Counted from the first letter of the stretch, positions 1-8,309 are shown. The stretch: DNA of 8,309 bases from Nitrosotalea sp. (GCA_050749405.1 JBOGRD010000002.1:174729-183037), one strand, 5' to 3'. A program made the numbers and translations. Notes: a model not told the origin generated them from the sequence alone.

Positions 1-852
1 GGCAACAACCGCATTGTAGAGTTTTACAACAATGATACTTTCATAAAATCATTTGGTTCCCTTGAATCTCTCCTATTGTCATTACCATCTAACGTCGCAC
101 TTGGCAGTAATGGCGACATATTTGTAGCAGATCAGGGAAATGACAGGATCTTGGTATTTGATAATGCTGGAAACTTCCTCTTTTCTTTTGGTAGTCAAGG
201 TACTGGAAATGGTGAGTTTAAAGCTCCATTTGGTATTGCATTTGATTCTTCTGATGACATTTACGTTGTTGATACAGGAAATAATAGAGTCGAGAAATTC
301 AGCAACACAGGCAGCTTTCTTTCAACGTTTGGAACAGAAGGAGCTGGCAATGGGCAATTACAGCAGCCTCTGGGCATAGCCATCGATTCTGTTGGAGATA
401 TCTACGTGGCAGATACTAACAACCAAAGAATTTCCGAGTTTAGCAGCTCAGGCACTTTCATACAATCATTTGGCACTGGTACGCTAAGCAAACCAAGCGG
501 TGTGGTATTTAATGCTGCAGGAAACTTCTATGTAAGTGACAGAGTAAAAAATAATGTCTACGAATTTAACAGTATTACCGGTTCTCTCATAAACACATTT
601 CCAAACACAAATTCTAGCGGAATCACTTTCAATATCCCATATGGAATAGGCTTTGATTTTCCAGGAAATCTGCACATTGCAGATTCTGGCAATGATCGTG
701 TCGTAGTCCTTTCAAGCACAGGACAGCTTGTTACTCAATTTGGCTTTCTTGGTAGTGGAAATGGTCAATTCAACACACCATCTGGTTTAGCTATCGATGC
801 TTCAGGAAATATCTACGTGGCAGATACAGGAAATAATCGCGTAGAAATATTT
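1..852 (+). repeat. NHL repeats (protein level): tail of one blade plus six complete blades, periods 126-144 nt
   Basis: Recurring pattern: hydrophobic-x-F-G-x-x-G-x-G-x-G-x-F-x-x-P-x-G-[IL]-A-[IF]-D-x-x-G-[ND]-[IF]-Y-V-[AV]-D-x-x-N-x-R-[IV]-x-x-F. Blade ends at nt 24, 159, 300, 441, 567, 711, 852. This matches the well-known NHL repeat signature. Confidence 0.88.
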
Positions 853-3528
853 TCTCCTACCATCATTCCGCGCTTAACAACTATAACGTTGAATAGTCCC
901 TCCACTCCATCAGTCAGATGGGGGCTTGATAGTGTCAGTATATCAGGTCACGCAACAGGTATTTCCAGCGGAGATAACGTCACGGTAAATTGGGGAGATG
1001 GTAGCACAACATCTGGCATTTTAGTATCTGCTTTTACTGGCACGTGGGGACCTGTAACTCACATATATCAAGCAGTAACATCTGGTCAGACCGAACAGAT
1101 AGTAGGAACTATTGTAAATAATGGAAATACGGTAGCTACAAGTTTACCAGTCTCTGTAAGTGTAATTGCCCATCACACGTCCCTTGCAATTGGTAACATT
1201 TTGAATGTGCCATTTGGAGGACTGATAACTGCCTCTGGAGTTCTCACAGATACCGATGCAAATTCTGGTATATCAGGCATGCCAATCACATTTTCAGGAA
1301 CTGGAGTTGGTGTACTATCACCTAAGACCACCACTTCTGGTGGATCATACTCGTCAACTGGTACTACAATAAATTCAATCTCAAGTGGATTACAGGTAAC
1401 TGCTAATTTTGCTGGAAATTCTCAATATCTCTTGTCTTCTGCAACAACATCTTCTACCTTTAGCACACTTCAACACCATGTTGCATTGTACCTCAAACCA
1501 ATACCAAATTCTCCCTGGAGTAGTACAATCACAATATCAGGCACACTTAACGATACAGATGGTGGAAATGTGGGAGTAAACGGAGAACCAATTACCATAA
1601 TAGGCAGTGGAATAACAAGCAGTCAGGTCATAACCACCAGTACTATATCAGGAAAAGCCGGATCATTTTCTACTACTGCAAGCACGACAAACAATGTTGC
1701 AAACGGCCTTTCTGTAACTGCAACATTTACTGGTGACTCTAATTATATTGGAAACAGTGCCTCCATAAGTTTTAGCACAATAGTGCATCGCACAAGTCTC
1801 ACTCTCAATCCTATTCCAAATGTAGCAGCCGGAGTAGCTATTACTGCATCAGGAATCCTTACGGATACTGATTCCAATGTAGGACTTGTAGGATCTACAA
1901 TCACCTTCAACGGGACTGGTCTAGATTCATTAAGCAGCACATCAAGTGGCCCGGGAGGATCATATTCTAGCAATGGTAATGCACCAAACGATATATTATC
2001 AGGACTTGCTTTGCAGGCACATTTTTCTGGCAGTCTATTATATCAGAATGCAGATAGCATAATCCAAACATACAGCACAGGTAATCCGCCATCGGTATCA
2101 ATCAATGCACCAGTCATATCTAATACGTTAGGAAATAACCAAGCAAGGTGGGGAATAGATACTGTATCCATTAACGGAACAGCTTCAAATGCTGCAATCG
2201 GTGATACAATTACAGTTACTTGGGGAGACTCTACTTCTGTTAATAACATCCCAATCAATTCTGGAAAGTGGAGTACTCTAAATCACATATATGGTTCAGG
2301 TGCAATAGGAACAAATCCCATAATTGCCACTCTGGTAAGTAGCGGTAACATAGACAAAACATCATCTGCACCTCTTTCGATCTCTGTATTGCAACACAGA
2401 TCTGTTTTAACGTTGAATACCATATCTAATGTTGGTGTTGGCGGTATCATTACTGCAACAGGTACGCTGACTGATGCTGATACAAACATTGGAATAGCAA
2501 GTCAGAGTATAACATTTACAGGAACAGGAGTTGGGACCCTAACTAGTGCAAGTACAAGTTCTTCAGGAGCCTATGCGGTAACTGGCACTGCTCTTACTTC
2601 TGCAGCTACTGGCCTGACTTTACAAGCCCACTTTGGAGGAGAACTCGATACATTGCCTTCCAGTAGCATAATACAAACTTACAATGTACTTCCAACCCCT
2701 CCATTCAGATTGATAGACAGTTACGTAATATTTGGTCTAGATGGTGTACATTTAGAACAAAACACAACAGTAGCTAGTGGAAATGTTGGAGAGCAGACTG
2801 AAGGATCTCAGATTCATATGGAACAGAGCTCGCAAGTCTTTTCAGGTTCTCTTGCAGGAGATATTCTGCATATTGAAAAAAACACGGTTGTAAACGATGT
2901 TTATTACAATCAACTACATAACGACGGCACAATTACAGGAACTAAAAACACCCCCCTGACTCTTCCTGTTTTAGCCTCTCTACCAGCCTTCCCTACTTTT
3001 TCTGTCGGATCCAAAAACATTAATGTAAATTCTAAATCCTCTTTGATACTGCAACCAGGTAGCTACAATGACATTTCAGTTAAAGATTCGGCAACATTAG
3101 AGTTTGTCGGCGGTACTTACAATATTAATTCATTATCGGTTGGTAAAGACTCAAAACTTTTGTTTGATGACAAATCTCAAATTCAAGTAAATGGTGCAAT
3201 TGATGGTAGCCAAGGAGATACAGTTGCCCCATCTTCATCAAACATAGATGCCACTGGGATTTTATTTTTCGCAAGATCTCACATTCATTTTGGCCAGTCT
3301 TGTATAATTTATGCCAATATGTATGCACCAAATGCCGAGATTCATTTTGAACAAAATACTGTTGCCACTGGCGCATTTATAGGAGATACAGTGCATGTTG
3401 AAAAAAATTCAAAAATTAATCTAGACTCCGACTTTGCAAATGTACCAACAATCCAGGTTACTATCACAGATCACAAACCCGGCGATAATCTTCCTGGTCC
3501 CAAACCCGGCGATAATTTTGGTCCATGA
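1..3528 (+). CDS. 5'-partial giant secreted/cell-surface protein: NHL-repeat beta-propeller + 2 PKD-like + 4 Ig-like modules + C-terminal beta-helix-like domain (1175 codons in window)
   Basis: Frame 1 is open from nt 1 to TGA at 3526-3528. The first 24 nt encode GNNRIVEF, the same blade-closing motif that recurs six more times (GNDRILVF, GNNRVEKF, NNQRISEF, KNNVYEF, GNDRVVVL, GNNRVEIF), so the true start lies upstream of the window. All overlapping ORFs are short shadows. Confidence 0.92.
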   Translation, partial: GNNRIVEFYNNDTFIKSFGSLESLLLSLPSNVALGSNGDIFVADQGNDRILVFDNAGNFLFSFGSQGTGNGEFKAPFGIAFDSSDDIYVVDTGNNRVEKFSNTGSFLSTFGTEGAGNGQLQQPLGIAIDSVGDIYVADTNNQRISEFSSSGTFIQSFGTGTLSKPSGVVFNAAGNFYVSDRVKNNVYEFNSITGSLINTFPNTNSSGITFNIPYGIGFDFPGNLHIADSGNDRVVVLSSTGQLVTQFGFLGSGNGQFNTPSGLAIDASGNIYVADTGNNRVEIFSPTIIPRLTTITLNSPSTPSVRWGLDSVSISGHATGISSGDNVTVNWGDGSTTSGILVSAFTGTWGPVTHIYQAVTSGQTEQIVGTIVNNGNTVATSLPVSVSVIAHHTSLAIGNILNVPFGGLITASGVLTDTDANSGISGMPITFSGTGVGVLSPKTTTSGGSYSSTGTTINSISSGLQVTANFAGNSQYLLSSATTSSTFSTLQHHVALYLKPIPNSPWSSTITISGTLNDTDGGNVGVNGEPITIIGSGITSSQVITTSTISGKAGSFSTTASTTNNVANGLSVTATFTGDSNYIGNSASISFSTIVHRTSLTLNPIPNVAAGVAITASGILTDTDSNVGLVGSTITFNGTGLDSLSSTSSGPGGSYSSNGNAPNDILSGLALQAHFSGSLLYQNADSIIQTYSTGNPPSVSINAPVISNTLGNNQARWGIDTVSINGTASNAAIGDTITVTWGDSTSVNNIPINSGKWSTLNHIYGSGAIGTNPIIATLVSSGNIDKTSSAPLSISVLQHRSVLTLNTISNVGVGGIITATGTLTDADTNIGIASQSITFTGTGVGTLTSASTSSSGAYAVTGTALTSAATGLTLQAHFGGELDTLPSSSIIQTYNVLPTPPFRLIDSYVIFGLDGVHLEQNTTVASGNVGEQTEGSQIHMEQSSQVFSGSLAGDILHIEKNTVVNDVYYNQLHNDGTITGTKNTPLTLPVLASLPAFPTFSVGSKNINVNSKSSLILQPGSYNDISVKDSATLEFVGGTYNINSLSVGKDSKLLFDDKSQIQVNGAIDGSQGDTVAPSSSNIDATGILFFARSHIHFGQSCIIYANMYAPNAEIHFEQNTVATGAFIGDTVHVEKNSKINLDSDFANVPTIQVTITDHKPGDNLPGPKPGDNFGP
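877..1170 (+). other. PKD-like beta-sandwich domain 1 of the 1..3528 CDS
   Basis: RWGLDSVSISGHATG..DNVTVNWGDGSTT..THIY; the W-G-D-G-S core (tgg gga gat ggt agc, 991-1005) resembles the PKD-domain WDFGDGS hallmark. Boundaries approximate. Confidence 0.6.
1171..2079 (+). repeat. Three tandem, diverged ~100-aa Ig-like (Big_1/invasin-like by eye) modules
   Basis: Modules start at 1171 (HHTSLAIGNI), 1474 (HHVALYLKPI) and 1786 (HRTSLTLNPI). Each contains [IV]T[AI]SG-x-L-[TN]-D-T-D-x-x-x-G-[IVL]..[PS]-I-T-[FI]..G-[ST]-G..S-G-L-x-[VL]-x-A-x-F-[AST]-G. Similarity is at protein level only. Confidence 0.7.
2080..2394 (+). other. PKD-like beta-sandwich domain 2 (paralogue of 877-1170)
   Basis: ARWGIDTVSINGTAS..DTITVTWGDSTSV..LNHIY aligns by eye with domain 1 (RWG[LI]D[ST]VSI.G.A....D.[VI]TV.WGD....HIY). 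Confidence 0.6.
2395..2688 (+). repeat. Fourth Ig-like module (paralogue of the 1171-2079 modules)
   Basis: HRSVLTLNTISNVGVGGIITATGTLTDADTNIGIASQSITFTGTGVG...GLTLQAHFGG...IIQTYNV shares the motif order of modules 1-3 and the module-3 ending (LQAHFSG...IIQTYST). Confidence 0.7.
2689..3470 (+). other. C-terminal beta-helix-like domain with six H-x-[EG]-[QK]-[NS]-x motif rungs
   Basis: Motifs VHLEQNTT (2749-2766), IHMEQSSQ (2815-2832), LHIEKNTV (2869-2886), IHFGQSCI (3286-3303), IHFEQNTV (3343-3360), VHVEKNSK (3394-3411). Spacing within each triplet is 17-22 aa. The central part contains L-x-P-G-x-Y-x-x-[IL]-x-V motifs (LILQPGSYNDISV, LEFVGGTYNINSLSV). The fold assignment is pattern-based only. 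Confidence 0.4.
3474..3516 (+). repeat. 16-bp exact duplication at 27-bp spacing encoding the Pro/Gly-rich C-terminal tail (KPGDNLPGP KPGDNFGP stop)
   Basis: caaacccggcgataat occurs at 3474-3489 and 3501-3516. It is in frame and sits immediately before the TGA at 3526. Confidence 0.85.
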
Positions 3529-3782: not shown

Positions 3783-3884
3783 CTATTTTTGATAAATTTG
3801 ATCGTCTAGTTCTTGATATTCAGATCTGGCAACAAAAACTAGCCATTCCAAATCGGTATCTATGGCAGACATAGATGCCATCAT
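3783..3884 (-). other. 33-codon small ORF (MMASMSAIDTDLEWLVFVARSEYQELDDQIYQK), coding status doubtful
   Basis: ATG at 3884 (minus) to TAG at 3785-3783. A GGAGGT lies about 11 nt upstream on the minus strand, and GGGCGGGGTTTTC follows the stop. This length is easily reached by chance. Confidence 0.12.
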
Positions 3885-3944
3885 GGAACCCGATCTTACC
3901 TCCTAATTCCTTGCCCCTTAATGATTATTGTAATTTAACCAATC

Positions 3945-4046
3945 TTAATGATTGGTGGAATCCTTACTTGTAGAGTTCCGTCTACCCCAATGGTAATTGT
4001 AGATTTCAAATTCCCACCAATCATTTTCTACAATTTCATCGGACAT
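3945..4046 (-). other. 33-codon small ORF (MSDEIVENDWWEFEIYNYHWGRRNSTSKDSTNH), coding status doubtful
   Basis: ATG at 4046 (minus) to TAA at 3947-3945. It is in the same minus-strand frame as the 3783-3884 ORF but separated from it by three in-frame stops. Confidence 0.12.
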
Positions 4047-4088
4047 GACATTCCAGGTAAGGATTCAACCAATTTCAGAAATTGTATA

Positions 4089-4094
4089 GAGGAG
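4089..4094 (+). promoter_or_regulatory. Shine-Dalgarno-like GAGGAG 8 nt upstream of the proposed TTG start
   Basis: The sequence reads tataGAGGAGagaattatTTG. This is a partial complement to the conserved CCUCC 3' end of 16S rRNA. No convincing TATA/BRE was found at a suitable distance. Confidence 0.25.
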
Positions 4095-4102
4095 AGAATT
4101 AT

Positions 4103-4180
4103 TTGAAAGCAAAAATTTTTTCAATCTCTATCTTTTGTCTACTTGCAATTTCATTGTTGACAATTGCAAGTAATGATGCA
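4103..4180 (+). other. N-terminal signal peptide or signal anchor
   Basis: A K-x-K n-region is followed by the 17-residue hydrophobic core IFSISIFCLLAISLLTI, then ASNDA. Confidence 0.6.
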
Positions 4181-7100
4181 ACGGCAATGAATAACGAAAA
4201 CACAACGGTACAGAAAAATTCAACACCGGATCAGACAAATACAATATCGCAAAATTCCAAGAGTACAAAGCAAGTAGAAATTGATCTCAACGATGGAGTT
4301 TCAGTAAGTGCAAATGATCCGCAAAACCAAGGACATCATGATCTCCAATATGCCCAACCAATCTTACATCAGCAAATTGATCTGAGTGAAAAACTAGCTA
4401 TATCAATCAACAAACCAGGTGATGACATGATTATTCTTGTAAAACAAAGCTCTGACAATCTTACAACATTGGAAAGAATAACAGGTATAGATAGACTACG
4501 ATTTGATGGAAGAAAACTAGTAGAAGAAAAAAATGGATTAAATCTATCTGATCAAAATCAACTTGACATAATTTCCTATGCGCAGAATAAAATTAGAACA
4601 ATAGATGAGCTGACAATTAATTACATAGGTCAAGACATCACCAATTCGGTACACAAGTTTGCTCCACCACTAGGCATTCAATTGGATTCAATTGCAACCT
4701 CAATACAGCACCGTACTCAACTCATCGTTGGCAATTCATATGTGCTAGGAAATGATCTAACAGAGCTAGCTCATAGTGCTGCTGATCTAAAGAATCCAAC
4801 ACTGCTTATTGTGCTGGTGCCTCTTTCAGGCTATATCCTAATTCGCTCAGAAGGAACAGAGATTACTTTTTACAACTCAAAAAGATTTGTCTCTCTTGTT
4901 TTGTTTGTAATTATTATTTCATCTACTGTAATTGGACCAGTCTCTGTATCCCCAAGCTTTTTGGCGTACGCCTATTCTCAAGCTAATGAATCCAACACAT
5001 CTGCAATAATATCTGAACAAAATGTTTCACAGACCAATTCCGGTCTGAACTTTAACGGCTACTCCAACTCTACACAAGCACTCAACCTCAACGGCTACTC
5101 CAACTCTACACAAGCACTCAACCTCAACGGCTACTCCAACTCTACACAAGCACTCAACCTCAACGGCTACTCCAACTCTACACAAATCACTAGTGCTCCT
5201 AATGCAACACAGTCTTGGAATTTTGGAACCAAAAATAACAAAACCCAAACAATAGGCCAGATAGAACTCGATAATACTACAAACAGCACCGCGTTGCAGC
5301 TACAGGGCAACGGCTATCTAACAGCAAATGGTTCTGCTACAAAAGAGATCAAGGATCTGACCTTATCTGCATGGGTAAAGCCAGATTTTAGCCAGGGCTC
5401 GCCTGTATTTACAGTAATAAGCAAAGAGGGAGAGTTTGCTCTTTCTATAAACAACATAATTCCACCATACAAAATTGCCCAATTTTCAGTATTTGATGGA
5501 ATAAAGTGGGACACTGTAAACTCTACGGTACCAATTGGACAAACCTGGACAAATCTAGCTGCTACATTCAACGGCTCTTCTATATCACTATATGTCAACG
5601 GCACTCTACAATCCTCAGTACCGCTCACAAAAATGATGACCATCTCTGAAGATGGAAACCTTGCAACAAAGAACTCTACTGACTTGTCATCTAATGCAGA
5701 TATAGTAATAGGCGCAGAATATAACAGCATAAGAAAAGAGGCAAGCAGCCAATTCTCAGGCCTGATTAGCAATGTCAATCTTTATGATTCCTTATTAACA
5801 TCTCCTCAAATCAGTGATCTTTACAATCAAAATCTTGTCACATTTTATCCGCAATTGGCTCATGTAGTGAAAACCTCCTTACCAGCTAACTCGACTCTTA
5901 CCGACGCACTGGCTCTTCTAGATAACGTATCGCTGAATTACACAGACAACTCAAACATGACAAATTCCACGCTACTCAACTATACGGTATCTGCCAATTC
6001 CTTGAACCTAAATCCTACAGAGTCGGCATACAAGATAACAGATAATCCGGAGCTTCATTTCCAGTACGTTAACGATACCACTTTTGCAAAATTATCAAAG
6101 ATGGCTAAAATGTCAAAAGGAGGATCACAATCTGGAGCATGGCAAAGTAATAGTGAAGACATAAAGATCACACTTTTGGACCCTCATGGCAAAACAATAC
6201 CTGCAAATGCAACATTTGCAAAGATACGAGAAGGAAAGTTTGATATCACGATACCATCTGCAAGATATGGCAAACCTGGACTATACACTGCAATAGTAGA
6301 GCTAACAAAGGATGGCAAAAAATATGTGTCCCAGACCCAGTTCGCCTGGGGGCTTGTTATTGTAAACACAAACAAGAGCATCTACAAGCCAGGGGAGACG
6401 GCAGATCTTACCATCGTAGTATTAGATAATGGGGGACGCCCAGTATGTAATTCCCAGATATCGCTTGATATTCTTTCCCCAGATTTGACAAGCACACTTC
6501 TTTCAAGTGGTAACGGCATAAGTCGAGATAAATTATGCGGCGTATATGATGCGCAGTATCTTGTATCATCTGAAGGTAACTATACAGTAAATGTAACAGC
6601 TAGCACTCCAAACGGAATAACTCATTTTTCGACTTACTTTTTGGCCAAAAACAACTATGATTTTGATATAATCCGAACCGCGGACAGCAAGATTGACCCA
6701 ATAAACAACCCAAACCTGTTTAACGTCCGAATAGATATTGGATCTTATGTAAACACTCAGGGCCTAACCATAAAGGAATTTGTTCCTTCAGTGTTTAATA
6801 TAACAACAGATGGATCTGTACAGACAGTCGGTGACACAAAGGTTCTAACATGGAACAAAGACCTGGTTGGAAACAAGACATTTGTACAATATTCGTATTC
6901 TGTGCCGCTAGACTTTCCACAAATTTATGCATTGGGGCCTGTCCAAATTACATACGGCAGTGGAGAAAGCTTTACCGAGGCACGACAATGGTTTGTTGCA
7001 AACGACCCTGCAGGCACCATCGGTGAAGATGCCGCCCAGGGATTTACCACCAGTTCAGCTGCAAACTCTCTTTCTGGCTCGATAACAGTTGGAAACAATA

Positions 7101-8309
7101 ACTATAGAGTACTTGTCGTAGGAATTAGTGTACAGAGTGGCACAAACAATGTAGTGTCTACCGTAAAAGATGGTTCGACTGCATTTACATATATTACATC
7201 TGTTGTGGCAAGCCATGGTGGTACTCACGTTGAAGATGAGATGTGGTATCTGATTAACCCTCCAATAGGATCGAACACCATTACAGCTACACTGACAGCC
7301 GGCACCACGGCTAACATGGTGATGGGCGTAACATCACTTTATGGTGTGGACAATTCAACAACCATAGGCACTCCAGTCACAAATATAAGCGGAGGCCAAG
7401 GTAGCACCACACCCAGTGTAGCAGTTACGACCACGAAAACAAACAGTTGGGTTGTTGATTCACTGTCTGTTGCAAGTAACACTGGAGCCCAAACAACAGG
7501 TGCAACTCAAAGCTCTCCACTTTATTCTGGAACGGTAGGTTCCACTCTTGGAGGATTTGGTAGCGACAGTAGCACCACTACAACAGGTTCGTACACTTCG
7601 TCATGGCTATTGGGTGCATCAAGTACGTGGGCCGAGATTGGAGTAGAATTCATCCCTTCAGGAATAAAAGCCCCGCTAGAATCACTAGCTCTGAGCGACA
7701 CATTGTTTCTACAGAGAGTAAAACATGTATCCCTAAGCGAGCCACTTTTACTTTCTGATAACCTGAATCTGATTAAATCAATATCAACAAACCTCCCGGA
7801 GTCACTACAATTTACTGATAGTGTAACTAAATCAAAGACCTTCAAGTTGGCAATGGTAGAGGCGTTGACACTATCAGACTCGGTATCTACACTCCACAAC
7901 AACCTCAAATCACTCTCTGACTCACTCACACTATCAGACTCGGTATCTACACTCCACAACAACCTCAAATCACTCTCTGACTCACTCACACTATCAGACT
8001 CGGTATCTACAACAAGGTCTTCCACTCAATCACTATCTGACTCACTAGACATAACAGATACCGCAGCTACAACAAGGTCTTCCACTCAATCACTATCTGA
8101 CTCACTAGACATAACAGATACCGCAGCTACAACAAGGTCTTCCACTCAATCACTATCTGACTCACTCACACTATCAGACTCGGTATCTGCAACAAGGTCT
8201 GTCACTCAACCATTGACTGATTCACTAGACCTAACCGATTCAGTATCTGCAACAAGGTCTGTCACTCAACCATTGACTGATTCACTAGACCTAACCGATT
8301 CAGTATCTG
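4103..8309 (+). CDS. 3'-partial giant surface protein (at least 1402 codons): signal/anchor + unknown N-domain + internal signal-like segment + NGYSNSTQALNL repeats + LamG jelly-roll + Ig/MG-like domains + 20-aa repeat stalk
   Basis: Frame 2 was read codon by codon from the stop at 4058-4060 to nt 8308 with no stop, which is very unlikely by chance in AT-rich DNA. The domain content is coherent. TTG at 4103 gives MKAKIFSISIFCLLAISLLTIASNDA; an alternative TTG lies at 4082 and the first in-frame ATG is at 4187. The ORF is missing from the supplied track because it is open at the window end. Confidence 0.9.
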   Translation, partial: MKAKIFSISIFCLLAISLLTIASNDATAMNNENTTVQKNSTPDQTNTISQNSKSTKQVEIDLNDGVSVSANDPQNQGHHDLQYAQPILHQQIDLSEKLAISINKPGDDMIILVKQSSDNLTTLERITGIDRLRFDGRKLVEEKNGLNLSDQNQLDIISYAQNKIRTIDELTINYIGQDITNSVHKFAPPLGIQLDSIATSIQHRTQLIVGNSYVLGNDLTELAHSAADLKNPTLLIVLVPLSGYILIRSEGTEITFYNSKRFVSLVLFVIIISSTVIGPVSVSPSFLAYAYSQANESNTSAIISEQNVSQTNSGLNFNGYSNSTQALNLNGYSNSTQALNLNGYSNSTQALNLNGYSNSTQITSAPNATQSWNFGTKNNKTQTIGQIELDNTTNSTALQLQGNGYLTANGSATKEIKDLTLSAWVKPDFSQGSPVFTVISKEGEFALSINNIIPPYKIAQFSVFDGIKWDTVNSTVPIGQTWTNLAATFNGSSISLYVNGTLQSSVPLTKMMTISEDGNLATKNSTDLSSNADIVIGAEYNSIRKEASSQFSGLISNVNLYDSLLTSPQISDLYNQNLVTFYPQLAHVVKTSLPANSTLTDALALLDNVSLNYTDNSNMTNSTLLNYTVSANSLNLNPTESAYKITDNPELHFQYVNDTTFAKLSKMAKMSKGGSQSGAWQSNSEDIKITLLDPHGKTIPANATFAKIREGKFDITIPSARYGKPGLYTAIVELTKDGKKYVSQTQFAWGLVIVNTNKSIYKPGETADLTIVVLDNGGRPVCNSQISLDILSPDLTSTLLSSGNGISRDKLCGVYDAQYLVSSEGNYTVNVTASTPNGITHFSTYFLAKNNYDFDIIRTADSKIDPINNPNLFNVRIDIGSYVNTQGLTIKEFVPSVFNITTDGSVQTVGDTKVLTWNKDLVGNKTFVQYSYSVPLDFPQIYALGPVQITYGSGESFTEARQWFVANDPAGTIGEDAAQGFTTSSAANSLSGSITVGNNNYRVLVVGISVQSGTNNVVSTVKDGSTAFTYITSVVASHGGTHVEDEMWYLINPPIGSNTITATLTAGTTANMVMGVTSLYGVDNSTTIGTPVTNISGGQGSTTPSVAVTTTKTNSWVVDSLSVASNTGAQTTGATQSSPLYSGTVGSTLGGFGSDSSTTTTGSYTSSWLLGASSTWAEIGVEFIPSGIKAPLESLALSDTLFLQRVKHVSLSEPLLLSDNLNLIKSISTNLPESLQFTDSVTKSKTFKLAMVEALTLSDSVSTLHNNLKSLSDSLTLSDSVSTLHNNLKSLSDSLTLSDSVSTTRSSTQSLSDSLDITDTAATTRSSTQSLSDSLDITDTAATTRSSTQSLSDSLTLSDSVSATRSVTQPLTDSLDLTDSVSATRSVTQPLTDSLDLTDSVS
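4880..4972 (+). other. Internal Sec-signal-peptide-like segment (aa ~260-290) ending A-Y-A
   Basis: The segment reads KR-FVSLVLFVIIISSTVIGPVSV-SPSFLAYA/YSQ, i.e. n-, h- and c-regions with an AxA-type site. It is preceded by another hydrophobic stretch, TLLIVLVPLSGYILI (4799-4843), and a short basic loop. Confidence 0.5.
5054..5185 (+). repeat. Perfect in-frame 36-bp tandem repeat, 3.67 copies, encoding NGYSNSTQALNL
   Basis: The unit aacggctactccaactctacacaagcactcaacctc occurs at 5054-5089, 5090-5125 and 5126-5161, with a 24-bp partial copy at 5162-5185. There are zero mismatches. A degenerate copy end lies at 5045-5053. Confidence 0.97.
5291..5824 (+). other. LamG / concanavalin-A-like lectin jelly-roll domain (Laminin_G_3-type)
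   Basis: The sequence is ALQLQGNGYLTA...LTLSAWVKPDF...VISKEGEFALSI...GQTWTNLAATFNGSSISLYVNGTL...IVIGAEY...FSGLISNVNLYDSLLTSPQISDLY. It matches the family pattern: F-x-G at the start, [ST]-x-x-x-W-[VI]-[KR], W-x-h-h-A-x-T-x-x-G-x-x-h-x-L-Y-V-[DN]-G, h-x-I-G, F-x-G-x-h-x-x-V-x-h-Y-x-x-x-L-[ST]-x-x-[EQ]-I. Confidence 0.85.
6362..6603 (+). other. MG/Ig-like beta-sandwich domain (alpha-2-macroglobulin MG-domain-like by motif)
   Basis: VNTNKSIYKPGETADLTIVVLDNGGRPV...GNYTVNVTA resembles the D-[KR]-x-x-Y-[KR]-P-G-[EQ]-x-h-x-h-x-h-h-h-x-D-x-x-G-x-P opening of MG domains. It has two Cys (RPVC, DKLC). A further beta-sandwich-like stretch follows (LTIKEFVPSVFNITTDG..VLTWN..FVQYSYSV, ~6760-6960). Confidence 0.45.
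7013..7660 (+). other. Unrecognised Ser/Thr/Gly-rich globular domain preceding the repeat stalk
   Basis: The stretch reads YRVLVVGISVQSG..STAFTYITSV..EDEMWYLINPPIGSNTITATL..MGVTSLYGVDN..NSWVVDSLSV..SYTSSWLLGASSTWAEIGVEFIPS. Alternating hydrophobic beta-strand-like patterns are present, but no family was recognised by eye. Confidence 0.3.
7676..7867 (+). repeat. Degenerate 20-22-aa repeats (protein level) leading into the perfect 60-bp arrays
   Basis: The units are LESLALSDTLFLQRVKHVS / LSEPLLLSDNLNLIKSISTN / LPESLQFTDSVTKSKTFKLAMV / EALTLSDSVS. They share the [ES]-x-L-x-[LF]-[ST]-D-[STN]-[LV] core of the downstream units. Confidence 0.7.
7868..8011 (+). repeat. 60-bp perfect tandem repeat, block A, 2.4 copies (DSLTLSDSVS-TLHNNLKSLS)
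   Basis: Lag-60 identity is 100% from 7868-7951 against 7928-8011. The repeat is in frame. Confidence 0.97.
8007..8166 (+). repeat. 60-bp perfect tandem repeat, block B, ~2.6 copies (TTRSSTQSLS-DSLDITDTAA)
   Basis: Lag-60 identity is 100% from 8007-8106 against 8067-8166. The repeat is in frame. Confidence 0.97.
8183..8309 (+). repeat. 60-bp perfect tandem repeat, block C, at least 2.1 copies and continuing beyond the window (ATRSVTQPLT-DSLDLTDSVS)
   Basis: Lag-60 identity is 100% from 8183-8249 against 8243-8309. The array is cut by the window end. Confidence 0.95.

Follow-up and report, generated by a model that had tools for sequence, protein, structure and literature searches.

An open frame that runs off the contig

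The 8,309-nucleotide stretch of DNA analyzed here (hereafter the window) comes from Nitrosotalea sp. (GCA_050749405.1, JBOGRD010000002.1:174729-183037), an ammonia-oxidizing archaeon (AOA) of (acid) soil. It contains an NHL-repeat gene and, downstream on the same strand, a second gene that runs off the window end. As read from its sequence, this second gene encodes the N-terminal 1402 residues of a giant modular surface protein.

In-frame translation of frame 2 from 4061 to 8308 gave 1416 sense codons and no stop; the other five frames contained 50-112 stops across the same interval. Given the local base composition, a run of 1416 stop-free codons would arise by chance with a probability of ~1e-37. 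The first in-frame start is the TTG at 4103, from which 1402 codons extend to the window end. An earlier reading of the window, made from the DNA alone (the sequence-only reading), had described the same stop-free, 3′-open frame of 1402 codons. Our retranslation and the public record both bear it out, the product being 100% identical end to end to NCBI/GenBank MGI0087089.1 (1402 aa; P0001). This record, titled 'MAG: LamG-like jellyroll fold domain-containing protein, partial [Nitrosotalea sp.]' (MAG, metagenome-assembled genome), has the same sequence, start and truncation as the window product, with no difference, and carries a generic domain name without architecture, topology or function. 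The gene is thus already annotated publicly as a partial LamG protein, and its discovery is largely ordinary.

MGI0087089.1 is encoded on a Nitrosotalea contig of 267,725 bp. Since this partial public protein terminates at the very position at which the window does, the window and the contig almost certainly end together. The contig stops inside 60-bp repeats, and because tandem arrays are the usual point at which short-read assemblies break, these repeats probably broke the assembly and cut off the gene. The closest species-representative loci, L003 (88% identity in the core domains described below) and L004 (85%), are likewise broken in or near repeats. The sequence-only reading was correct that the largest gene is missing from the open reading frame (ORF) track. 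This omission reflects the design of the tool, which leaves out ORFs that run off the source end, and does not amount to a failed annotation; NCBI annotates the exact 1402-residue partial protein. With the gene in GenBank and the gap due to a rule of the tool, the significance for annotation is minor.

The codon comparisons show a genuine gene under purifying selection. When aligned by codon with three orthologs (loci L002, L003 and L004), the plus frame contained no stop, and synonymous and non-synonymous codon differences relative to L004 were about equal in number (332:313). A search at E <= 1e-3 gave 65 homologous proteins, nearly all of them in bins of Nitrosotalea, Nitrosopumilaceae, Nitrosotenuis or "Thaumarchaeota"; LamG was found in nearly all of the 65 and MG2 in most. 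No Rfam family and no tRNA was found in the window.

Domain architecture

The domain order is signal peptide, N-terminal module with a transmembrane hairpin, sequon-rich repeat linker, LamG domain and immunoglobulin (Ig)-like domain, followed by an MG2-like domain, a third β domain, a variable β-sandwich cassette and a Ser/Thr/Asp stalk. The features of the gene, all on the plus strand, are as follows, with the evidence in parentheses.

4089-4096, plus strand: Shine-Dalgarno-like GAGGAGAG, six bases 5′ of the TTG at 4103 (read from the sequence)
4103-8308, plus strand: 3′-truncated coding sequence of the predicted giant LamG/MG2 surface protein, 1402 codons (open frame and orthologs)
4103-4186, plus strand: predicted signal peptide or first hydrophobic segment, aa 1-28, MKAKIFSISIFCLLAISLLTIASNDATA (hydropathy, homolog alignment)
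4187-4792, plus strand: family-specific N-terminal module, predicted extracytoplasmic part, aa 29-230 (conservation)
4793-4975, plus strand: predicted transmembrane hairpin, aa 231-282, and A-Y-A↓Y site, aa 288-291 (family hydropathy scan, alignment A1)
5054-5185, plus strand: 36-bp tandem repeat, 3.7 copies, 100% identical, encoding NGYSNSTQALNL (Tandem Repeats Finder)
5303-5815, plus strand: LamG/concanavalin A-like jelly-roll, aa 401-571 (Pfam PF13385, Laminin_G_3)
5825-6019, plus strand: Asn/Ser/Thr-rich sequon linker, aa 575-639 (translation and sequon distribution; no family match)
6020-6307, plus strand: Ig-like β-sandwich, aa 640-735 (co-occurs with the MG2 core in 44 family proteins and in other archaeal phyla)
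6308-6637, plus strand: MG2-like macroglobulin-type β-sandwich (Pfam MG2 at aa 753-799)
6638-7003, plus strand: third conserved β-rich domain, ending EARQWFVANDP, aa 846-967 (alignment A4; no Pfam family)
7004-7678, plus strand: variable cassette, 16-strand β-sandwich, aa 968-1192 (AlphaFold2, BFVD, PHROG and the viral protein ORF60)
7679-8308, plus strand: Ser/Thr/Asp stalk of 20-residue repeats with consensus SLSDSLTLSDSVSTTRSSTQ (translation and register; runs off the contig)

The linker at aa ~300-400 is rich in Asn, Ser and Thr and contains four perfect copies of NGYSNSTQALNL, each with one N-glycosylation sequon; nine sequons fall within aa 300-400. Over the whole 1402 residues there are 35 sequons, concentrated in the linkers, against 27.5 +/- 4.3 in shuffled sequences. 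The identity of the copies, taken with the differing copy number in two close homologs given below, indicates what is probably ongoing copy-number change of the 36-bp unit, by which sequons would be added or removed.

The LamG assignment was secure, with a Laminin_G_3 score of 62.6 bits (cut-off 27.6; E 6e-17) over profile positions 2-151 of 151, and LamG was present in 66 of the 67 family proteins. The Ig-like region at aa 640-735 had no Pfam match of its own, and its fold is inferred. Pfam MG2 (PF01835) scored 35.5 bits against a cut-off of 32.8, the profile of the core matched the MG2 structure of α2-macroglobulin (2p9r) with E 7.5e-5, and Cys-782 and Cys-812 of the MG2-like domain are invariant in alignment A4. 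Together with the third β domain these two domains form a core (aa 640-968) that is the most conserved part of the family, with a mean column identity of 74% in alignment A4. The core, which ends in EARxW(F/Y)VAxDP, matched most complete-core family proteins with E ~1e-100 to 1e-124, and 44 proteins carry it. The stalk includes a 60-bp tandem array at 7868-8308 (~7 copies, 87% identical), and stalk-homologous repeats occur in 28 family proteins.

The sequence-only reading had proposed LamG, Ig/MG-like and repeat-stalk content in a surface protein. The first three were found as described, and the product does have the look of a surface protein. Three stretches had matched nothing that reading recognized. 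The first, aa ~27-230, still has no Pfam or PDB match and can now be described as a family-specific N-terminal module. The second, aa ~575-690, is a sequon-rich linker followed by the Ig-like domain, and the third, aa ~970-1185, is a confidently modeled β-sandwich also found in virus tail or attachment proteins.

In homologs, the 12-residue linker unit was present in three copies in protein P0002 and in two in P0066; both proteins belong to one 90%-identity cluster.

Full-length orthologs and the missing distal part

Two full-length orthologs have the same domain order: P0066 (2403 aa; locus L002, ENA contig k141_388379), which is 68% identical to the window protein, and P0027 (2395 aa; locus L001, GCA_036278495.1), which is 37% identical. 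The window is collinear with L002 over 1-2685 and 3846-7758 at ~75% nucleotide identity (blastn), and the P0066 locus shares the upstream NHL-repeat gene with the window. In both complete loci, which are collinear, genes for a class II tRNA-synthetase, an AP endonuclease and primase lie downstream, the last represented by more than one gene.

Beyond the point at which the window ends, P0066, P0027 and the C-terminal fragment of L003 contain more stalk repeats, a weak prealbumin/SpaA-like match and β-rich regions. Further distal in the orthologs is a Gly/Ser linker and then a conserved C-terminal region of ~470 residues (CtC), which is present in P0066, P0027, L003 and ~25 other loci. By comparison, ~1000 residues are probably missing from the window protein, which would be about 2300-2400 residues long when complete. 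The sequence-only reading had suggested extending the contig 3′ to find the stop codon and any C-terminal anchor. This contig offers no such extension, although the orthologs indicate what the missing part probably contains. The C-terminal anchor is unlikely to exist. The full-length orthologs have no terminal hydrophobic segment, their ends (...AVETPFMSQ and ...ELPFVSENQ) being hydrophilic, and no archaeosortase-type PGF-CTERM or PEFG-CTERM signal; NCBIfam gave no match for the window protein.

The N-terminal module and membrane topology

The Kyte-Doolittle hydropathy of the N-terminus reaches a maximum of 2.39 over aa 5-23, and aa 1-28 align with the ...A-x-A↓D signal-peptidase-like sites of homologs, which suggests cleavage as a signal peptide. 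Residues 29-230, which contain the family motif TT(L/M)ERIxNxxRIRFxG(K/R), had no Pfam, NCBIfam or PDB sequence match. The N-terminal module was found in 48 of the 67 family proteins (phmmer), and a search of 1.84 billion proteins with its profile retrieved 319 representative clusters, with the match N-terminal in nearly every case. The AlphaFold2 model of the module was poor (predicted local distance difference test (pLDDT) 58, predicted template-modeling score (pTM) 0.23; 46 sequences). It shows the hairpin as two helices (233-249 and 259-281) preceded by a helical pair.

A conserved pair of transmembrane segments at aa 231-282, overlooked by the sequence-only reading, was found by the family hydropathy scan. 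The first segment (TM1, aa 231-249) reads NPTLLIVLVPLSGYILI and is followed by a short basic loop and the second segment (TM2, aa 262-282). TM2 leads into the signal-peptidase-like sequence ...SPSFLAYA↓YSQ. In alignment A1, Pro-240, Gly-243, Ser-274, Pro-279 and Ser-283 show little or no variation, and an acidic residue or Gln is preceded by a small-x-small motif (AYA, AFA, AYG, ASG). The window module matches the family signature VPLSGYILIR ... SSxxxTPxSIS ... AYA seen in that alignment. The hydrophobic N-terminal segment and the hairpin are kept in most N-terminally complete homologs, and sequons are present on both flanks of the hairpin. The hairpin is thus the probable anchor, and its position in the chain is N-proximal.

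The same residues admit a different processing route, in which TM2 acts as an internal signal peptide and the chain is cut after about residue 290. The products would be a two-pass membrane stub and a freed giant ectodomain, which would pass into the matrix or else stay attached non-covalently to the stub or the surface layer (S-layer). The anatomy of TM2 is that of a signal peptide, with a basic n-region (K/R), a hydrophobic core, a Pro/Ser-rich c-region and a small-x-small motif before E, D or Q, and it is kept in 22 of 22 aligned homologs. The N-terminal module is always N-terminal, and the full-length orthologs have no other anchor. However, the c-region of ~15 residues is longer than is usual for signal peptidase I substrates, and cleavage is a reading of the sequence, whereas a plain transmembrane hairpin anchor accounts for the same conservation. 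We regard internal cleavage as possible, if rather unlikely, and anchoring by the hairpin remains our preferred interpretation.

Two further proposals were rejected. A sequencing error that joined two genes between TM1 and TM2 is contradicted by dozens of independent homologs and loci with the same continuous arrangement. Docking of the stub to the stalk, with the I-x-L-S-E-x-L-x-I strands of the N-terminal module as copies of the stalk repeat, was also discarded as unsupported: a hidden Markov model of the stalk repeat scored <=3.5 bits, the same as shuffled controls.

Family distribution and the cross-phylum core

The loci compared define a Nitrosopumilales-wide family with a fixed order: N-terminal module, LamG (1-3 copies), Ig-like, MG2-like and third β domains, then the variable cassette (0-2 copies), the Ser/Thr/Asp repeat stalk and conserved C-terminal domains. 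This order recurs in ~60 related loci, with 1-3 paralogs per genome. A genome scan with a profile of the MG2-like and third domains found 103 places, mostly in Nitrosopumilales.

Bins labeled Methanoperedens, Methanophagales (ANME-1), Argoarchaeum, Altiarchaeota, Nanohaloarchaea and Halobacteria likewise contain the Ig/MG2/third-domain core, at 46-50% identity; the non-thaumarchaeal loci include L064, L066, L073, L075, L078 and L082. In the giant surface proteins of these other phyla the core lies 260-650 residues from the N-terminus, and in each of the five proteins with N-termini that we read (L064, L066, L073, L075 and L082) one hydrophobic segment at the N-terminus precedes it. Among these five, the protein from a Methanoperedens metagenome-assembled genome (L075:3305-12268), is a 2988-residue multiheme cytochrome with MtrC/MtrF-like and cytochrome c7/c3 domains. 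By this distribution, the core is a module in wide use among giant archaeal surface proteins, and its occurrence across phyla suggests either a shared envelope module or horizontal transfer.

The recurrence of this core, in one case in a multiheme cytochrome, raises the possibility that it serves as an envelope scaffold, docking giant proteins into or under the S-layer and organizing the envelope. A report on AOA biofilms is compatible with such a role in placing adhesion proteins 'within the S-layer' (PMC12448741). The lineages that carry the core have unrelated S-layers, however, and the high identity across phyla could equally reflect horizontal transfer of a sturdy spacer. In addition, the LamG domain and the viral-type cassette suggest ligand binding. 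A scaffold role is, in our estimation, decidedly unlikely, and we continue to favor an adhesin or ligand-binding protein.

Paralogs of the family were observed in several arrangements. Loci L015 and L016 (CAVOVM010000003.1, 283,972-318,887) are two paralogs in tandem on one contig, and several other genomes carry two or three copies spread over separate contigs, as with L003, L014 and L058 of a single Nitrosotalea bin. Family members P0033, P0057 and L048 come from bins labeled Verrucomicrobiae, Nanoarchaeia or Zixiibacteriota. For these three, mis-binning seems more likely than true presence because the contigs are short and the similarity to Nitrosopumilales proteins is high.

The variable cassette and its viral relatives

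The slot between the core and the stalk is hypervariable, with family members holding different domains in it. The window cassette had no PDB sequence match and no Pfam match. Its AlphaFold2 model, from a 15-sequence alignment, was confident (pLDDT 89.2, pTM 0.88) and all-β. Solved structures match this fold weakly (TM-score <=0.3). Viral models in BFVD gave closer matches. Uncharacterized proteins of uncultured tailed phages reached a TM-score of 0.85 (root mean square deviation 1.8 Å, 25-28% identity), and many actinobacteriophage "minor tail proteins" reached 0.65-0.77. PHROG 553 ('minor tail protein') was matched by 2 of the 15 aligned homologs, with a best E of 6.7e-11, the window cassette itself falling below threshold.

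A tblastn search of phage genomes found one gene, present in the two 30,340-bp records BK067791 and BK067783. In BK067791 this gene is ORF60 (L083:3247-6285), which encodes the largest protein (1012 aa) of the Nitrosopumilaceae spindle-shaped virus NTT1, now classified as Terrafusivirus tennesseense (family Nipumfusiviridae) and originating from rhizosphere metagenomes. The cassette is 34-37% identical to the C-terminal domain of ORF60, and the family profile matches ORF60 aa 708-942 with E 1.7e-27. Conversely, the best cellular matches of ORF60 are the Nitrosotalea orthologs of the window gene, at 37% identity. The PHROG 553 proteins and ORF60 appear to share the cassette fold, with sequence similarity seen for two homologs in the case of PHROG 553 and for the cassette in that of ORF60. 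They differ in the position of the domain, which is internal in the cellular membrane protein and C-terminal or nearly so in the virion proteins. ORF60 has a signal peptide, long β-rich repeats and the cassette-homologous C-terminal domain; its record has no functional annotation.

Direct scans of viral contigs with the window cassette gave no match. A degenerate motif scan was needed, and it located the domain in the IMG/VR contigs L086, L087 (two adjacent ORFs) and L089. A word-indexed search with the cassette alone (6980-7672) gave no match, not even to the identical parent protein, which we attribute to poor word seeding in Ser/Thr-rich sequence and do not take as a sign of absence; negatives of this search on β-rich sequence of low complexity are unreliable.

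C-terminal domains of this sort in viruses usually bind the host surface. One conceivable connection would be that the window protein acts in infection by AOA viruses, as a decoy, competitor or receptor. The likeness of the cassette to ORF60 of a putative AOA virus, whose best matches are in turn Nitrosotalea orthologs, fits this idea, as do the hypervariability of the slot and the fold shared with phage minor tail proteins. Nevertheless, a common binding fold does not imply a common ligand or antagonism. NTT1 is a metagenomic genome with a putative host, ORF60 has no assigned function, and no defense-system context was seen in the window. We judge a role in virus interaction to be quite improbable.

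A diversity-generating retroelement was rejected for the window, in which no template/variable repeat pair and no reverse transcriptase ORF was found. The only direct repeats in the window are the tandem arrays within the gene and the NHL/Ig repeats of the upstream gene.

The MG2-like domain

The domain shares the signature LVxxxTxKSIYKPGET... with the MG2 domains of α2-macroglobulin and complement (PF01835; 2p9r). The Pfam score above cut-off and the matches of the core profile to α2-macroglobulin MG2 structures could therefore be taken to indicate an α2-macroglobulin-like protease trap or thioester protein. This is highly improbable. No CxEQ thioester motif (C[GLA]EQ) is present in the window protein or in three full-length homologs, and no thioester, A2M or bait-region Pfam domain was found, nor any receptor-binding domain. 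A single MG-type domain is recognized, compared with seven or eight in such proteins. With the thioester motif and the other macroglobulin domains missing, also from the full-length orthologs, an α2-macroglobulin function was rejected. The MG2-like domain is a structural module, not a protease trap.

Antisense ORFs and the upstream region

The ORF track lists four minus-strand ORFs opposite the gene, with the coordinates given by the sequence-only reading, which had called them antisense shadows.

5027-5248, minus strand: antisense shadow ORF, 73 aa, not a gene (5 stops in the matching frame of L004)
5314-5778, minus strand: antisense shadow ORF, 154 aa, not a gene (1 stop in L004, 2 stops in L002)
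6184-6381, minus strand: antisense shadow ORF, 65 aa, not a gene (one stop each in L002 and L003; uninterrupted in L004 alone)
7522-8025, minus strand: antisense shadow ORF, 167 aa, in the repeat region, not a gene (7 stops in L004, 1 in L002, 4 in L003)

Each of these ORFs is interrupted by stops in at least one ortholog and the plus frame in none, and they are shadows for this reason. That they are the real genes, at 65-167 aa in a partly repetitive region, and the plus ORF a low-complexity accident, has a negligible chance of being true, given the ortholog stop counts, the chance estimate for the open frame, the conserved domains and the 65 homologs, and a spurious plus-strand ORF was excluded.

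The gene is preceded by a conserved intergenic segment.

3846-4102, plus strand: conserved upstream region (collinear with L002 from 3846 by blastn; inverted repeats)

This region had a mean column identity of 81% in the three-ortholog alignment, compared with ~75% in the coding part. It contains short hairpin-forming inverted repeats (CCAATC..GATTGG and AATTGTAGA..TCTACAATT); no inverted repeats of >=30 nt were found in the window. Its RNA fold z-score was -3.3, for a structure without covariation support. The region is probably a promoter, operator or 5′ leader, possibly structured.

Two minus-strand ORFs of 33 codons lie in the intergenic space, at 3783-3884 and 3945-4046. The first is preceded by a GGAGGT site, and the ATG of the second is not conserved in L002. 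In L002 the corresponding space is occupied by two genes on the minus strand (104 and 138 aa) that the window lacks.

The upstream NHL-repeat gene is listed by the ORF tool at 76-3528 (plus strand). Its frame is open back to base 1, where the translation (GNNRIVEF...) has an NHL-type motif; the gene is thus cut by the window start and the listed TTG is an artifact. It encodes a product with at least five NHL repeats, about four Ig-like repeat units, a match to DUF7305 and a tail rich in Pro, Gly, Asp and Asn. In L002 the ortholog has 1359 residues, and the last ~840 bases of the window copy (2686-3528) have no counterpart in L002. Since an NHL β-propeller protein with Ig-like repeats also adjoins the L002 ortholog, the window may be part of an adhesion region.

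Proposed role and comparison with known adhesins

We think it likely that the gene encodes the start of a giant modular, membrane-anchored and probably glycosylated adhesin or ligand-binding surface protein. In this proposal, a Sec signal peptide would take the N-terminus across the membrane, and the hairpin at aa 231-282 would anchor the chain with the 200-residue N-terminal domain and the long C-terminal ectodomain both outside. The sequon-rich linkers would be glycosylated. The string of β-sandwiches and the repeat stalk would project the distal domains through or beyond the S-layer, and LamG and the virus-like cassette would bind ligands, probably glycans, in adhesion or surface recognition. 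The perfect 36-bp and near-perfect 60-bp repeats would allow changes in copy number, by which linker length and the number of glycosylation sites may vary.

Several points weigh against this proposal. The sequon excess is modest (~1.8 standard deviations), and the topology is based on hydropathy and a low-confidence model (pLDDT 58). Cleavage at the A-x-A-like motif behind TM2 could also free the ectodomain instead of leaving it anchored. The distal ~1000 residues are known from orthologs only, and the likeness to the AOA adhesion proteins discussed below is one of description.

A bolder combination of these observations would be an undescribed mode of display, in which TM2 of a two-pass stub also serves as an internal signal peptide and the ectodomain, bearing a receptor-binding cassette exchanged with viruses of the same hosts (NTT1 ORF60, phage minor tail proteins), is exported and then either tethered or cleaved and re-captured. 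Host adhesins and viral attachment proteins would then have a common stock of binding domains, directed at the same archaeal surface glycans. This is speculative, and we consider it unlikely.

Giant surface proteins are among the least understood genes of AOA and probably govern attachment, aggregation and contact with viruses in soils. In short-read assemblies, genes of this kind frequently break off at their repeats, so that the distal halves go unseen. The window gene provides three leads: a conserved N-terminal anchor module that recurs in the 319 clusters and is absent from the Pfam and NCBIfam libraries searched, an Ig/MG2 core common (~50% identity) to giant surface proteins of distant archaeal phyla, and a predicted variable binding domain that also occurs in viral attachment proteins.

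In overall plan the window protein resembles the RTX/Bap-type adhesins and halomucin, which also consist of chains of β-sandwiches and a repetitive stalk with lectin-like binding domains. It differs from such adhesins in that it lacks RTX, cadherin, VCBS and Big repeats as well as a type I secretion signal. To our knowledge, anchoring by an N-proximal transmembrane hairpin has not been described for giant repeat adhesins.

The closest parallels by description are found in AOA. Biofilm growth strongly induces large adhesion proteins (1000-3000 aa) in S-layer-bearing AOA (PMC12448741). These proteins, from the Nmar_0455-0459 and NVIE_000940-001020 regions, are giant, repeat-rich, extracellular multi-domain proteins that are read as adhesins, like the window protein. 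One of them, Nmar_0456, is listed as a β-propeller-repeat protein and may resemble the upstream NHL gene more than the window gene. A giant LamG/cadherin adhesin is also known from Ca. Nitrosocaldus cavascurensis (bioRxiv 10.1101/240879). It carries cadherin and phospholipase D domains that are absent here, shares LamG with the window protein and, like the window gene, has repeats that broke its assembly.

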